A stretch of 17,345 bases of DNA from a virus (IMGVR_UViG_2690316028_000014:1-17345), one strand, 5' to 3'. Numbered from the stretch's first letter, positions 4,289-15,977 are shown. The notes: generated by a model not told the origin, from the sequence alone. Numbers and translations are program-made.

Positions 4289-5014
4289 ATGAAAACGACA
4301 CTCGCTGAAAGACTGAAGGAAGCCAGGACATTACGAGGCCTTACACAAAAGGCTCTCGGGGATCTGGTTGGGGTAAGCCAAGCTGCTATCCAGAAGATAG
4401 AAACGGGAAAAGCTAACCAGACAACAAAGTTGGTAGAGCTGGCAAATGCTTTGATGGTTAAACCTGAATGGCTAAGTTCAGGTGTTGGCCCCATGCGATC
4501 AGACGCTAAAGAATCAAATATTGGTCCTGAATCAGAGTGGGGAACTGTCGACGCATGGGACAAAAACACCCCGCTTCCTGCTGACGAGGTTGAAGTGCCT
4601 TTTCTTAAGGATATTGAATTTGCTTGTGGCGATGGACGCGTTCAATGCGAGGATCACAATGGCTTTAAGCTCAGGTTCTCAAAGGCAACCCTCCGACGCG
4701 TTGGAGCTAATACAGATGGGTCTGGCATCCTGTGCTTCCCTGCTACTGGCGACAGTATGGAACCCGTAATACCGGATGGTACGACTGTAGCCGTCGATAC
4801 GAACAACAAACGCATAGTTGATGGGAAACTGTATGCCATTGGTCAGACAGATGGCGGGAATGGTCAACTCAAGCGCATTAAACAGCTGTATCGTAAGCCA
4901 GGCGGAAAGCTAATTATCCGCAGCTACAACAATGAGGCCTACCCTGATGAAGAAGCTGACATTGATGATGTTGAGATAATCGGCCGCCTCTTCTGGTACT
5001 CGGTATTGCTGTAG
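4289..5014 (+). CDS. cI: CI-type prophage repressor (HTH_XRE N-domain plus S24 LexA-like peptidase C-domain)
   Basis: N-terminal HTH (LTQKALGDLVGVSQAAIQKIETGK); C-terminal GDSMEP with Ser156 and Lys195/198 at lambda-CI-like spacing; candidate Cys113-Gly114 autocleavage site. Confidence 0.9.
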   Translation: MKTTLAERLKEARTLRGLTQKALGDLVGVSQAAIQKIETGKANQTTKLVELANALMVKPEWLSSGVGPMRSDAKESNIGPESEWGTVDAWDKNTPLPADEVEVPFLKDIEFACGDGRVQCEDHNGFKLRFSKATLRRVGANTDGSGILCFPATGDSMEPVIPDGTTVAVDTNNKRIVDGKLYAIGQTDGGNGQLKRIKQLYRKPGGKLIIRSYNNEAYPDEEADIDDVEIIGRLFWYSVLL

Positions 5015-6371: not shown

Positions 6372-6376
6372 ATAAA

Positions 6377-6403
6377 CCCGGCCACCGCGCCGGGTTTTTA
6401 TTT
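6377..6403. terminator. Bidirectional Rho-independent terminator
   Basis: CCCGGC-cacc gc-GCCGGG hairpin (6377-6394) followed by TTTTTATTT on the plus strand and preceded by AAATAAATAAA (U-tract for the minus strand); ends both the plus-strand island and the minus-strand 68-aa ORF. Confidence 0.75.
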
Positions 6404-6604
6404 GCCCTTCCGTACCATCTCAGCCGCATCCCGTAGCACCCCCTTGTGGATCACGTTCCCGACGGCTTTACGCTTCCCTTCCAGAAATCCCACAATGTTG
6501 TCTTTGTTGATCTCAATCCCGTTGTAAATCAGTTCGAACACCACACACCCAACCTCTCCAGCCATGAAGGCCATCCGGTCATCTGCAAGTTCATCACGTT
6601 CCAT
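6398..6604 (-). CDS. Hypothetical protein (68 aa), convergent with the cI island
   Basis: Track ORF 6398..6958 trimmed to the ATG at 6602-6604 with GGGGGTGG upstream; E. coli-like codon choice; the longer N-terminal extension runs through AT-rich promoter DNA and is rejected. Confidence 0.5.
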   Translation of the reverse strand: MERDELADDRMAFMAGEVGCVVFELIYNGIEINKDNIVGFLEGKRKAVGNVIHKGVLRDAAEMVRKGK

Positions 6605-6688
6605 AGCCACCCCCTGATGTTTTTTGCAGCATAGCACCAATCTTTTATAAAAATAAATTCCTTTTAAATACAACCAAATAAAACCAAA

Positions 6689-6742
6689 ACAACTATAAAT
6701 ACAACTATTGTTGTTGACGATAAAACAACTATGGTTTTTAAT
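6689..6742 (+). promoter_or_regulatory. OL/pL-like operator-promoter cluster driving the early-left (recombination-int) operon
   Basis: Three direct ACAACTAT copies at 6689, 6701 and 6725 (12- and 24-bp phasing) plus an inverted GTTGTTG; promoter TTGACG (6714-6719), 17 bp, TTTAAT (6737-6742); shares CTATGGTT with the OR region. Confidence 0.5.
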
Positions 6743-7287
6743 AAGTCCATCGAAACGAAACATCGACAGCTGAGCGAAGTTAGCCAGCGGCGGACAGCAA
6801 GTCGCCTGCTTCTTTAACAAATCAGACTGAGTGACAGGCAAGCCGTAGCTCTCCTGGCAAAAAGAAATGGCACCCGATGGGATCGAGGTAAGCACTGAGT
6901 CCGTATGCGTACGGTAGGTGTAGAGGACCACGCTGCGATGAGCTGATAAGTCACTCAATTTGAAGCGCTCCGATGATGGGGCGCTGATTCAACTTAGAGG
7001 AGTGATTCCAATGAAGAACTAAAGCGGACAGACCGCAGCCTAAAGGCAATGCAGCAGTAATGATGCCGCCCTGAGTCGCCGAATGGCGAGCCTGTGTAGT
7101 GATGGGTCAAGGTTCTTATATCAAAACAAGCTCCGGTAAAGCAGCGCGAACGCCAGACGCGCACCGGTTATGAGCGGCGATGAGCGACAAGGTCTCAAGG
7201 GCATGTGCGCGGCCACTGCGAGAGTGTGGCGAAGTTTACCAGCAGCTCTTTGCGAGGGGCTGACGGTAAACAAAAAGAGGAGTGTGT

Positions 7288-7629
7288 ATGGCAGATAAAA
7301 AAACGGCGCCACTACTGCTTAACGTAGACGCCAGCGAGGTACTTACTCAGACCGGGGAGCTTTTAAAGTTACTTGAACTTCCAGCCAGTTCCTTTCAGGG
7401 AATTCCTGAGCATGTCGTCGATCTGTTTTTTGACCGTGTCCGTGGCCTGATTGACAACATCGTCCTTAGTGATTTCTCGACCACAGTCAGCACAACTGAC
7501 GCCGGTGAAATTTGTCTCAAAGTCAAAATCATCGGGCTGGTTGAACATCTCACTTCCGCAGTCAGGGCACACGGTCCGCATGGTTTGCATGAATATATCC
7601 TTTCTACTGTTGGGGAGATTAAAGAGTAA
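7288..7629 (+). CDS. Hypothetical protein (113 aa), first ORF of the early-left operon; mutually exclusive with the antisense zinc-ribbon ORF
   Basis: Strong RBS GAGGAG 5 nt before the ATG at 7288; on the strand transcribed from the pL-like promoter; Leu codons mostly CTT/TTA, so it could be a shadow of the minus-strand ORF. Confidence 0.35.
   Translation: MADKKTAPLLLNVDASEVLTQTGELLKLLELPASSFQGIPEHVVDLFFDRVRGLIDNIVLSDFSTTVSTTDAGEICLKVKIIGLVEHLTSAVRAHGPHGLHEYILSTVGEIKE
7369..7590 (-). CDS. Candidate zinc-ribbon protein (73 aa), antisense to the 7288-7629 ORF
   Basis: CPDCG-(19 aa)-CADCG four-Cys motif; RBS AAAGGA 7 nt before the ATG at 7588-7590; host-preferred codons; the Arg-rich N-terminal extension in the track (to 7821) is rejected. 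Confidence 0.35.
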   Translation of the reverse strand: MQTMRTVCPDCGSEMFNQPDDFDFETNFTGVSCADCGREITKDDVVNQATDTVKKQIDDMLRNSLKGTGWKFK

Positions 7630-7848
7630 GCGATTTCTTGCTGTTGGGGAATAGCGGGAAAGCGCGCGCCGGGCGCGGATAAATACCCCGGCACTAACTG
7701 GAATGTTTTGGGCTGGCAGACGGTTATCAGCTAGTTGGTGAGGTAATGGCTCACCAAGGCGACGACGGCCTTCCCTGCTGCTTGAAAGCGGGGAGCCAGC
7801 ACCAAAACATTTCTCCCGCATCAGCGGGTAACGACAGAGGGTAAGGGT

Positions 7849-8094
7849 ATGTCAGATAAGCAGGTTCAACTGTCTGGTAAATGCGTCTTGAAGATAGACA
7901 CCATCAAAGGCAGCAGCACTATCGAAATACCAAAAGTGAATCTCAGCGGCAAAAACAATGCAGACGCTTTGCTTAATGAAGTGTTCCATTTTGGAGTAAT
8001 GCGTCACGGGAAAAACAAGCTTCGCGAAATGCTTGAAGAGAAGCTTGATGGCTACGGGGAAGAGTACGAAAACCATGGCCTCACTTACGACTGA
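7849..8094 (+). CDS. Hypothetical early protein (81 aa, acidic C-terminus)
   Basis: RBS AGAGGGTAAGGG before the ATG; immediately followed by an intrinsic terminator. Confidence 0.6.
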   Translation: MSDKQVQLSGKCVLKIDTIKGSSTIEIPKVNLSGKNNADALLNEVFHFGVMRHGKNKLREMLEEKLDGYGEEYENHGLTYD

Positions 8095-8115
8095 CCCGCT
8101 CCGGCGGGTTTTTTA
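8095..8115 (+). terminator. Rho-independent terminator (tL1-like)
   Basis: CCCGC-tccg-GCGGG hairpin followed by TTTTTT; a second hairpin GGCAGA-N8-TCTGCC follows at 8129-8148. Confidence 0.7.
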
Positions 8116-8384: not shown

Positions 8385-8581
8385 TGGAAACTTTATTCGC
8401 ACTCGTCCTGACCGTGGCAATGACCAACGGTGATTATCAGGATGTCATTCTCGGCGTTTACGACAGCCAGCAGGAATGCAGCCTGGCAGCTACAGAGCAG
8501 AAAGTGTCAGCTGAGTGCTGGCCGGTAGAAAGCATCATCCGCAACGGCGAGTTCCCGGCGAAATCCATCGCGCAGCAGTAA
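8384..8581 (+). CDS. Hypothetical small protein (65 aa; hydrophobic N-terminus, acidic)
   Basis: Track ORF 8330..8581 trimmed to the ATG at 8384; METLFALVLTVAMTNGDYQ...; occupies the position lambda uses for kil/cIII-type genes. Confidence 0.5.
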   Translation: METLFALVLTVAMTNGDYQDVILGVYDSQQECSLAATEQKVSAECWPVESIIRNGEFPAKSIAQQ

Positions 8582-14499: not shown

Positions 14500-14847
14500 A
14501 TGGACGAAGAAGTATTTACCAGAGATGAGGCCGCCGCCTTCCTTAAAGTGGATAAAGGCACGATTGCCCAGTGGATAAAGTCCGGTCGCCTGGCTGCTAC
14601 CCGAAAAAATCCACATAAGAAAAAAAGCCCATACCTGATCTGCAAAACAGACTGTATTGCGGCAGTGAAGAACCCGATCCACAATCAACCTGTGAATGCG
14701 GTTGATGTGCAGGAGGATAAAGCATGTCAATCAAACAACGTGCCGGTACGTGGCACTGCGACTTCGTTACGCCTGGTGGAAGTCGAATTAGACGGTCTCT
14801 TGGGACAACGGACAAAAGGCAAGCGCAGGAGCTCTATGATCAGCTGA
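14500..14847 (+). CDS. xis: Excisionase (Xis/AlpA-type HTH)
   Basis: N-terminal [26 protein letters not shown] matches the excisionase-family HTH; directly upstream of int, overlapping its start by 124 nt in another frame. Confidence 0.6.
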
Positions 14848-15887
14848 AAGCTGAAGCATGGCGAGTTGATAAGATGGGGGAGTTTAAGCCGCGAACGTTC
14901 GATGAAGCGTGCGTTCGCTGGCTTAACGAAAAGCAGCACAAGAAAAGCCTGGACGATGACAAAAGCCGGATCGGATTCTGGAGGATGCACTTCAAAGGAA
15001 TGGACCTGTCAGCAATCACGGAAGACAGGATCTTGTCGGCGGTGAGTTCGATGGTTAATCGCAAACATCGAATGAACTGGGAGGCTAAACGGGACAGCCT
15101 GCTGCGAAGAGGTAAGCCGGTTCCTGAATTTAAGGATAAACCAGCGTCGCTGGCGACGAAGGCGACGCACCTTGCTTTCATCCGGGCGCTGTTACGATGC
15201 GCGGCCAACGAATGGCGATGGATAGCCAAAGCGCCGAACATCAAATGCCCGGTGCCGAAAAATAAGCGTATTCGCTGGCTAACCAAAGAGGAAGCGGCGA
15301 ACCTGATCCGGGAGCTTCCCGAGCATATGAAGCCAGTTGTTATTTTTGCACTGGCGACAGGGCTGCGCAGATCGAACATCACCGATCTGGAGTGGTCACA
15401 AATTGATATGCAGAGGAAGGTCGCGTGGATTCACCCCGAGGACGCGAAAGCAGGAAGGGCGATTGGGGTCGCCCTGAACGAATCGTCCTGTAAGGTGCTG
15501 CGGGAGCAACTGGGGAAACATAACCGTTGGGTCTTTGTTCACACTGAATCATCCGTTCGCCCGGATGGAACGAGAACAAAGGCAGTGCGCAAAATGCGGT
15601 CTGATGCTAACACGGCATGGCGCGCGGCGTTAAGGCGGGCGGGAATAGAAAATTTCCGCTTCCATGACCTGCGGCACACCTGGGCAAGCTGGCTTGTACA
15701 GTCCGGCGTGCCACTCAGTGCGCTACAGGAAATGGGCGGGTGGGAAAGTATCGAGATGGTGCAGCGTTATGCGCATCTGGCACCGAATCACCTGACGCAG
15801 CATGCCATGCAAATCGACTCATTCCTGGCGGGGAATGGCACAAATATGGCACAAGGCGCTTTTGCTGAACTGGTGAATATCGCGTGA
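14724..15887 (+). CDS. int: Tyrosine integrase (P22-like)
   Basis: 387 aa; RBS AGGAGG; catalytic signature [15 protein letters not shown] ... VQRYAHL (R-H-R-Y family); ends 15 bp from the tRNA-Thr 3' end. Confidence 0.9.
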
Positions 15888-15901: not shown

Positions 15902-15977
15902 TGGTGCCGATAAGAGGAGTCGAACCTCCGACCTTCGCATTACGAATGCGCTGCTCTACCAACTGAGCTATATCGGC
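15902..15977 (-). tRNA. thrW: tRNA-Thr (anticodon CGU)
   Basis: Reverse complement reads GCCGATATAGCTCAGTTGGTAGAGCAGCGCATTCGTAATGCGAAGGTCGGAGGTTCGACTCCTCTTATCGGCACCA: 7-bp acceptor stem, D-loop AGCTCAGTTGGTAGAGC, anticodon loop TTCGTAA, T-arm GGTTCGA, encoded CCA. Confidence 0.9.

Follow-up and report, generated by a model that had tools for sequence, protein, structure and literature searches.

Can both strands of one stretch of phage DNA encode a conserved protein? The question is raised by a locus in IMGVR_UViG_2690316028_000014:1-17345 (the window, meaning the whole 17,345-nt stretch of viral DNA that was analyzed), which comprises the immunity and early-left region of a lambdoid prophage. 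Here, a plus-strand open reading frame (ORF) of 113 amino acids (aa) encloses a minus-strand ORF encoding a zinc ribbon (ZR). Annotations of the locus conflict, with the NCBI pipeline calling the minus gene and phage curators the plus gene, and an earlier note on this DNA had held that only one of the two was likely to be real. The present evidence suggests that both annotations are right, as the openness of the plus frame, its start signals, codon periodicity, a conserved motif, and a structural model speak for the plus ORF too. In 20 divergent lineages, the plus frame was open much more often than expected from codon usage; by this comparison, the pairing of the two ORFs is beyond chance, and both ORFs are probably genes, forming a nested, codon-aligned antisense pair.

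Geometry of the two reading frames

Both ORFs described in the earlier note are present in the window (Table 1). They share 222 bases, and their codon triplets coincide (at 7588–7590, plus-strand CAT is minus-strand ATG), the third base of a codon in either frame being the first base of a codon in the other. The ZR ORF, the ZR Shine–Dalgarno region, and the ZR 3ʹ hairpin all lie inside the span of the plus ORF. The excellent ribosome-binding site that had been claimed for the plus ORF, and the separate one claimed for the minus ORF, were both recovered as Shine–Dalgarno sequences close to an ATG. The reported CxxC-N19-CxxC zinc ribbon was right as to the two CxxC pairs and wrong as to their spacing: the cysteines are at residues 8, 11, 33, and 36, which makes the motif CxxC-N21-CxxC. 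The host-preferred codons attributed to ZR were found for Asp, Ile, and Phe (GAC 7/10, ATC 2/2, TTC 3/5), and not for Asn and Leu (AAC 1/4, CTG 1/2). The leucines of the plus ORF had been described as mostly CTT, mirroring AAG lysine codons of ZR and thereby marking a shadow ORF. CTT accounts for 7 of the 17 Leu codons, and because only three of these seven mirror AAG lysines and four lie outside the overlap, this shadow signature is weak.

Table 1. Coordinates of the antisense pair and of the associated features in the window
Feature	Position (nt)	Strand	Remarks
Plus ORF, 113 aa	7288..7629 (ATG 7288; TAA 7627–7629)	+	HK639_45; PHROG 29546 family
Zinc-ribbon gene (ZR), 73 aa	7369..7590 (ATG at 7590; stop 7371–7369)	−	ECs_2282 family
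Shine–Dalgarno of plus ORF, GAGGAG	7277..7282	+	5 nt before ATG
Shine–Dalgarno of ZR, AAGGA	7598..7602	−	7 nt before ATG
Probable intrinsic terminator of ZR	7297..7334	−	Hairpin 7334–7304 (GGCGUCUAC...GUAGUGGCGCC), U7 run 7303–7297
Two direct repeats CTGTTGGGGA	7607–7616 and 7641–7650 (element 7607..7650)	.	Flank minus-strand −10-like hexamer
Pseudoknot-type RNA element or two alternative hairpins	7663..7692	+ (strand tentative)	S1 CGCGC/GCGCG, S2 GCCGG/CCGGC, A-rich linker
Two-stem-loop put-like RNA	7186..7275	+	Directly 5ʹ of plus ORF; HK639 alignment and folding
pL-like promoter TTGACG, 17 nt, TTTAAT	6713..6741 (TTGACG 6713–6718; TTTAAT 6736–6741)	+	Sequence read directly
cI-like repressor	4289–5014	+	Helix-turn-helix plus S24 peptidase

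Purifying selection on the zinc-ribbon frame

ZR matched NF047912 (NCBIfam, ECs_2282 family putative zinc-binding protein) with 80.8 bits against a cut-off of 37 (E = 4.9e-23, profile positions 4–59 of 60), and by the family name it is a putative zinc-binding protein. It resembles the members of this family in its two CxxC pairs, which are followed by a C-terminal helix, and in its length of 73 aa compared to 73–76 aa, but the family entry gives a name only and mentions no conserved partner on the opposite strand. ZR homologues of 73–76 aa with conserved cysteines, down to 42% identity, were found in Escherichia, Klebsiella, Hafnia, Citrobacter, Pantoea, Yersinia, Kluyvera, and Leclercia. Among 20 of them C33 and C36 were invariant and C8 and C11 nearly so; in a set of eight sequences, again down to 42% identity, all four cysteines were invariant. 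A sequence search of the PDB with ZR returned only generic zinc-finger and zinc-ribbon matches, and the AlphaFold2 model of ZR was poor (pLDDT 57.6). A defense role was considered through PADLOC and set aside, the match to PDC-M14A (E = 6e-6, 24.6 bits) being too weak to assign, and a literature search on ECs_2282, HK639, and PDC-M14 returned nothing on this locus.

For the lineage test, about 300 loci were collected with ZR-based queries only, giving 179 distinct sequences in 20 lineages. The scan of genome contigs contributed 5 loci, and most of the comparative power came from viral and metagenome scans. On a tree of 79 distinct homologous DNAs, the Fitch changes at ZR codon positions 1/2/3 numbered 102/54/271 over the 72 overlap codons, the usual pattern of a coding sequence when read as ZR and the inverse of it when read in the plus frame. 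Branch events were counted in the OLGenie manner, with the effect on ZR given first and that on the plus frame second (S, synonymous; N, non-synonymous), and fell into 21 SS, 216 SN, 58 NS, and 68 NN. The resulting dN/dS (omega) of ZR was 0.16 from dNN/dSN and 0.17 from dNS/dSS, and on these counts purifying selection on the embedded ZR frame is strong. The family match, the excess of third-position change, and the low omega bear out the earlier proposal that the minus ORF is a real gene; support was not confined to the plus frame, and the zinc-ribbon cysteines were conserved in relatives.

The same counts decide against the reverse proposal, that only the plus ORF is real, as the annotation of phage HK639 has it, and that the zinc ribbon is an accidental antisense ORF. 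The order 271/54/102 at plus positions 1/2/3 in the overlap is the reverse of a coding pattern and already contradicts this proposal, and the third positions of the plus frame at the four Cys codons did not change at all on the 79-DNA tree. Although the HK639 curators and the gene callers in several phage records annotate the plus ORF, AlphaFold2 models the plus protein with more confidence than ZR, and one ZR nonsense codon occurs beside an intact plus ORF, the cysteines, the Shine–Dalgarno sequence, and the curated family model all favor ZR, as does its omega. We consider an accidental zinc ribbon hardly credible.

Openness and start signals of the plus frame

Given its alignment with ZR, the plus frame can be closed only by the ZR codons TTA, CTA, and TCA. 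In the long ORFs of the same loci, which served as background, TTA plus CTA made up 19% of Leu codons and TCA made up 18% of Ser codons. Over 134 Leu/Ser codons of ZR, only 2 gave antisense stops compared to 25.3 expected, and the plus frame was open across ZR in 18 of the 20 lineages versus 5.7 expected (P = 1.7e-9), a result that persisted when the background frequencies were halved (P = 3.6e-4). As all 20 lineages had been found with ZR queries, there was no ascertainment bias towards an open plus frame. In five lineages, TCA at ZR codon 2 or 4 is the plus ORF's own stop, and the C-terminal end of the plus ORF lay between −9 and +63 nt of the ZR start, depending on the lineage. When selection on ZR alone was simulated 300 times on the same tree (79 leaves), stops arose in the plus frame 9.1 times on average with a minimum of 2, and a mean of 48 of the 79 leaves (minimum 3) carried one; none arose, and no leaf carried one, in the observed data.

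The start of the plus ORF is kept as well. A GAGG/GGAG-like Shine–Dalgarno sequence stands 5–10 nt before the ATG in all divergent homologues examined, and Shine–Dalgarno and ATG together hold their place, about 81 nt past the end of ZR, in every lineage, even though the loci share no similarity in the DNA further 5ʹ. Both ORFs retain their start signals, GAGG-like for the plus ORF and AAGGA-like for ZR, each with an ATG, in all lineages examined.

In the non-overlapping N-terminus of 26 codons, changes at positions 1/2/3 numbered 88/63/138 and omega was 0.56. Reading the conserved N-terminal motif as purely protein conservation was rejected, because its most invariant bases form the ZR 3ʹ hairpin and T-run, and both measures were recomputed without them: omega was 0.52 once the hairpin and T-run codons were removed, and periodicity outside the hairpin stems was 60/43/99 (our summation from the per-position change table). 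The second positions of hydrophobic codons were unchanged, and the sole indel among the N-terminal codons was one in-frame deletion of 6 nt.

These results bear on the possibility that only ZR is real and that the plus ORF is a shadow, open since the aligned antisense frame of a gene avoiding TTA, CTA, and TCA stays open, with the ZR terminator accounting for the N-terminal conservation. Such an account is quite unlikely in our view. It agrees with the dominance of ZR in overlap selection (omega 0.16 vs about 0.67), with two-fold ZR sites evolving about equally fast whether or not the plus protein changes, with the coincidence of the invariant GCGCC, GACGCC, and A7 run with the ZR hairpin and T-run, and with the annotation of ZR alone by PGAP. 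However, the openness exceeds both the codon-usage expectation and every ZR-only simulation, a terminator cannot account for a fixed Shine–Dalgarno sequence plus ATG, and no frame-breaking indel occurred in 27 codons at about 50% amino-acid divergence. The 3-periodicity and omega that persist outside the stems, and an invariant Asp encoded by both GAC and GAT, point the same way. Thus, judged by openness above expectation, independent start signals, and a coding signature outside the overlap (omega about 0.5), the plus ORF is not the chance shadow that the earlier note had suggested.

The protein probably encoded by the plus ORF

The motif [LIV]x[LIV]D[AT][ST]E lies outside the overlap and is kept with different codons (GAC/GAT, GCC/ACC, and AGC/AGT/TCA, including a switch of Ser from AGC to TCA) at 41–45% ZR identity, in the Klebsiella phages 2b LV-2017, KP12, and ST899-OXA48phi17.1 and in Edwardsiella phage Edno5. 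The ORF antisense to ZR is annotated in all three of the records fetched (2b LV-2017, KP12, and Edno5), and in HK639 it is annotated as HK639_45, immediately 3ʹ of features labeled as a putative pL and as "putL-like antiterminator RNA". A profile search gave 34 plus-family clusters at 50% identity, mostly of about 91–132 aa, and the motif with its invariant Asp was present in 21/21 family sequences read from among these clusters. Two plus-type ORFs of 155 aa (loci L176 and L006) were considered as longer family members and discarded, being read-through fusions with separate upstream PHROGs.

AlphaFold2 modeled the plus protein with a pLDDT of 84.3 and a pTM of 0.69, in the order β-α-α-β-β-α. 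The N-terminal strand of the model, which runs up to the conserved Asp, pairs with an overlap-encoded hairpin, and the D-x-S/T-E segment reads as a helix N-cap starting at this Asp, which predicts a small alpha/beta protein. The plus ORF had no match in Pfam or NCBIfam, PDB sequence and fold searches found no relative of its protein, and there was neither a match to regulator families nor an arginine-rich motif visible in the sequence.

In the overlap, the plus frame had an omega of 0.66–0.69 compared to null medians of 0.86–1.02, so that the comparison of dN/dS by frame proposed in the earlier note was clear for ZR and less so for its partner. This combination of strong stop avoidance with weak amino-acid constraint would be expected if the plus ORF were translated and its protein unimportant. 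The open frame would then serve to keep ribosomes on the pL or late transcript across ZR, guarding against Rho-dependent polarity or early decay or controlling the pairing with ZR mRNA, and the locus would amount to antisense-RNA regulation around one real protein. The variable C-terminal end, and a plus ORF that spans the ORF, Shine–Dalgarno region, and 3ʹ hairpin of ZR, fit this view too. Nevertheless, we hold it to be unlikely, as the N-terminal omega of about 0.5, the invariant Asp, and the conserved hydrophobic second positions indicate constraint on the protein itself, the confident and compact model joins an N-terminal strand to an overlap-encoded hairpin, and polymerases modified by Put, N, or Q are expected to resist Rho already.

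Signals flanking the zinc-ribbon gene

A hairpin about 35 nt past the ZR stop was found at the same place in 19/19 lineages. Its stems differ among lineages with pairing kept (GGCGUC/GGCGCC, GGUAUC/GAUACC, and GGUGUC/GACACC), the ZR strand gives the more stable fold in 17/19 lineages, and a T-run of varying quality follows in most. Pairings of this hairpin and of the pseudoknot described below were tabulated per sequence by script, the MAFFT alignments being out of structural register. On the plus strand the same bases are read as D-K-K...A-P...D-A-S. The hairpin with its U-run is the probable intrinsic terminator of ZR.

At the 5ʹ side, the ZR Shine–Dalgarno sequence, seen on the plus strand as TCCTT or a variant, is conserved in all lineages. 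The two direct repeats of the ZR 5ʹ region, 34 nt apart, co-vary between lineages (GACTGTGGAA twice or CTATTGGGG twice), and the type of repeat does not track the type of ZR protein. The tail-module clade has palindromes (TGTGTG...CACACA) where others have direct repeats. Between the repeats, inspection found only −10-like hexamers (TTTAAT, TAGAAT, and similar), from which we infer a candidate promoter/operator region of ZR at 7607–7650. The moron-type autonomy suggested for the minus gene is supported by its own Shine–Dalgarno sequence and the hairpin plus T-run after its stop.

RefSeq Escherichia coli genomes annotate the minus ORF as an "ECs_2282 family putative zinc-binding protein", here of 150 aa. 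The PGAP call (7369–7821, minus strand) adds 77 N-terminal residues through ZR's own promoter region, the pseudoknot, and a 16S-like piece. Relatives do not support this over-extended form, which is likely an annotation error.

Past the end of the plus ORF lies a conserved pseudoknot-type element. Compensatory changes preserve its two helices in 18 variants, some of them from loci with 43–57% ZR identity; the tail-module and KP12-type clades lack the element. GGGAAAG, 5ʹ of the pseudoknot, was considered as a −1 frameshift site and rejected, as the heptamer is not conserved and there is no ORF reading through. Scans of the module and of the pL leader against Rfam gave no family for the put-like RNA, the direct repeats, or the pseudoknot.

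A mobile module with a fixed orientation

The pair occurs in two kinds of context: in early-left regions, either as the first gene after pL (the window and HK639) or elsewhere (Edno5), and in the tail-gene cluster just 3ʹ of the tape-measure gene (Klebsiella phage 2b LV-2017 and many related contigs). Six contexts are annotated (the window, HK639, the Klebsiella phages 2b LV-2017 in its tail module, KP12, and ST974-OXA48phi18.2, and Edwardsiella phage Edno5), and in every one of them the plus-type ORF has the direction of its neighbors and ZR the opposite one. The module is carried by 33 of 5426 complete E. coli genomes. By this distribution, the pair travels as one module between the early-left and tail operons of temperate phages of Enterobacteriaceae.

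In the window, the plus strand carries gam, bet, and exo, and the minus strand cro, cII, and the replication genes. The pL-like promoter sits within a cluster of cI-operator-like half sites (6670–6738), which resemble those of the oR region, and the leader 3ʹ of it (6745–6790) matches the leader after the annotated pL of HK639, a curated genome near-identical to the window across 7235–7720. This promoter would drive the plus strand through the module, in line with the earlier placement of the plus ORF on the pL-transcribed strand and of the minus gene antisense within the early-left operon. No plus-strand ORF of more than 42 aa lies between pL and 7288, which makes the plus ORF the first ORF of the pL transcript. 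Within the put-like RNA upstream of it (folding energy −33.2 kcal/mol, z = −1.95), the 3ʹ stem-loop (7235–7270) is identical to the 3ʹ half of the putL-like RNA annotated in HK639.

Proposed expression in opposite states

From the orientation rule and the autonomous signals of ZR we infer that the two genes are expressed alternatively; the timing, the mutual exclusion, and the roles of both proteins given below are likewise proposals. If both ORFs are genes, the chance that ZR and the plus protein are made in opposite states of the phage seems about even to us. ZR would form its own small minus-strand transcription unit, running from the repeat-flanked promoter region through AAGGA-N7-ATG to the hairpin plus U-run, and the plus protein would be read from GAGGAG-N5-ATG as the first product of the pL transcript. 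As long as pL is repressed by cI (in other phages, as long as the tail operon is off), the ZR unit alone would be transcribed, giving ZR. Once pL fires, transcription made processive by the put-like RNA would run head-on through the ZR unit, occluding its promoter, supplying a full-length antisense RNA, and yielding the plus protein. ZR might, at a guess prompted by the weak PADLOC match, be a lysogen-phase accessory or exclusion factor. The explanation as a whole, in which the claim of two genes weighs more than the proposed mechanism, is one that we favor with some reserve. If the opposite-state model is true, the locus is a compact strand switch coupling the lysogenic or lytic state to the choice between two proteins.

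Several observations weigh against this explanation or parts of it. Amino-acid selection on the plus frame in the overlap is marginal, the fractions of null simulations at or below the observed values being 0.057 and 0.037, and some of the conserved N-terminal sequence (GCGCC, GACGCC, and the A7 run) is accounted for by the arms and T-run of the ZR-strand hairpin. The plus frame is closed and ZR intact in a Leclercia-type lineage (L007 and L226–L228) and in a remote homologue (L245). Conversely, a nonsense codon interrupts ZR (E24 to stop) beside an intact plus ORF in L275 and L276, the only loci in which ZR is not intact, so that the pair is not obligatory. The energy of the ZR terminator hairpin is unremarkable in the single sequence (z = −0.57), a good T-run is missing in some lineages, and no promoter was reported at the ZR 5ʹ region by a consensus scan for sigma-70. 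Finally, the AlphaFold2 confidence of the plus protein may in part stem from amphipathic patterns that mirror those of the ZR gene.

As to origin, ZR is probably the older and more constrained partner, with the plus gene arising by overprinting; the broader and more constrained family of ZR fits such an origin. A more speculative and rather doubtful idea is that the nesting itself is an interlock. It would ensure that a lysogen-phase effector, ZR (perhaps for exclusion or defense), and a lytic partner that neutralizes or replaces it are inherited together and never expressed at the same time, with the direct repeats and the pseudoknot taking part in the switch. The plus protein may then bind ZR, because codon-aligned complementary strands encode hydropathically complementary peptides.

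Relation to known systems

Genes that overlap in antisense are known as a class, though a disputed one (PMC7457138, PMC9927249, PMC8850804). Embedded cases have been described in E. coli O157:H7 and Pseudomonas aeruginosa (PMC9927249, PMC8850804; reviewed in PMC7457138) from RNA-seq and Ribo-seq (PMC9927249, PMC8850804), and two of the ORFs were termed "evolutionarily novel" (PMC8850804). The present pair resembles them in that one ORF lies wholly inside a longer opposite-strand ORF, with its own start and stop signals and selection in both frames. It differs in that the embedded gene, ZR, is the older and strongly constrained one and the enclosing ORF is weakly constrained, and in that the pair, known here from sequence alone, is conserved to about 40% protein identity and moves between phage operons. 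To our knowledge, published antisense pairs are mostly young, taxon-restricted, and weakly backed by comparative data, and a literature search found no description of this one. Functional long antisense overlaps in prokaryotes are contested, and selection on both frames is rare and, where proposed for bacteria and phages, usually disputed; here, the comparative support is unusually strong, with about 20 divergent lineages, about 40% protein identity, and two unrelated genomic contexts. If both annotations are right, single-strand annotation loses one protein family in many prophages, and the question is open to direct test, as phages that carry the module, HK639 among them, can be cultivated.

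Among phage elements, lambdoid morons resemble ZR, which has its own Shine–Dalgarno sequence, a 3ʹ hairpin with T-run, and a candidate promoter region and is sparse in E. coli genomes. Classical morons lie between genes, whereas the ZR unit lies inside and antisense to another conserved ORF. In lambda oop/cII and P22 sar/ant, a small unit is likewise transcribed against a major phage operon and mutual interference is possible, but the analogy is functional only: the antisense partner there is a non-coding RNA, and here both strands appear protein-coding. The plus ORF, first after pL and a put-like two-stem-loop RNA, recalls the first gene after pL and put in HK022-type phages (nun; N in lambda). 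Unlike these, it had no regulator family match in general family scans, which included no direct comparison for homology to Nun or N.

Adjoining elements and other features of the window

The pL leader of the window (6748–7287, plus strand) is about 540 nt long, about 350 nt longer than that of HK639; the two leaders agree only over ~45 nt at the start and ~55 nt at the end. A minus-strand promoter-like site (TCGTCA-17-TATAGT, 6692–6720) stands back to back with pL inside the operator cluster. A minus-strand ORF of 68 aa (6401–6604) without a family match, possibly a divergent small gene, ends at a bidirectional terminator (6374–6397). In RefSeq copies, a 95-aa "hypothetical protein" is called across pL and the leader (6671–6958, minus strand), likely an annotation error.

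Just 3ʹ of the module, a 47-nt hairpin on the pL-sense strand (7723–7769, plus) matches small-subunit rRNA models (Rfam SSU clan, E = 1e-7); it contains AGCUAGUUGGUGAGGUAAUGGCUCACCAAGGCGACGA, which we take to be identical to a 16S helix of many gammaproteobacteria. A near-identical 16S-like stretch, recognized via its translation, lies upstream of the plus-type ORF instead in locus L003. In HK639 (L002), the same slot holds a tRNA-like sequence (4481–4550, plus strand; tRNA-Ile by ARAGORN, 70 nt, ending GGTTCGAATCC...CCACCA), and so the slot after the module holds fragments of different stable RNAs.

Further downstream, a hairpin plus Shine–Dalgarno cassette, TTTCTCCCGCATCAGCGGGTAACGACAGAGGG (7817–7848, plus strand), precedes an 81-aa ORF at 7849. 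This portable cassette is also found in HK639 and in the N region of phi80 (96% over 50 nt); in L003, it stands immediately 5ʹ of the plus-type ORF. After the 81-aa ORF comes the terminator core CCCGCTCCGGCGGGTTTTTTAT (8093–8110, plus strand); the same sequence occurs immediately 5ʹ of the plus-type ORF in tail-module loci (L255 and L176) and looks like a recurrent mosaic joint.

In the DUF1482 gene region, a fluoride-riboswitch-like match (8519–8581, minus strand) scored 19.4 bits against a gathering score of 34 and is probably due to chance. A tRNA-Thr (CGT) at 15902–15977 (minus strand) adjoins a 387-aa ORF (14724–15887), possibly an integrase, and may mark the attachment site and end of the prophage.

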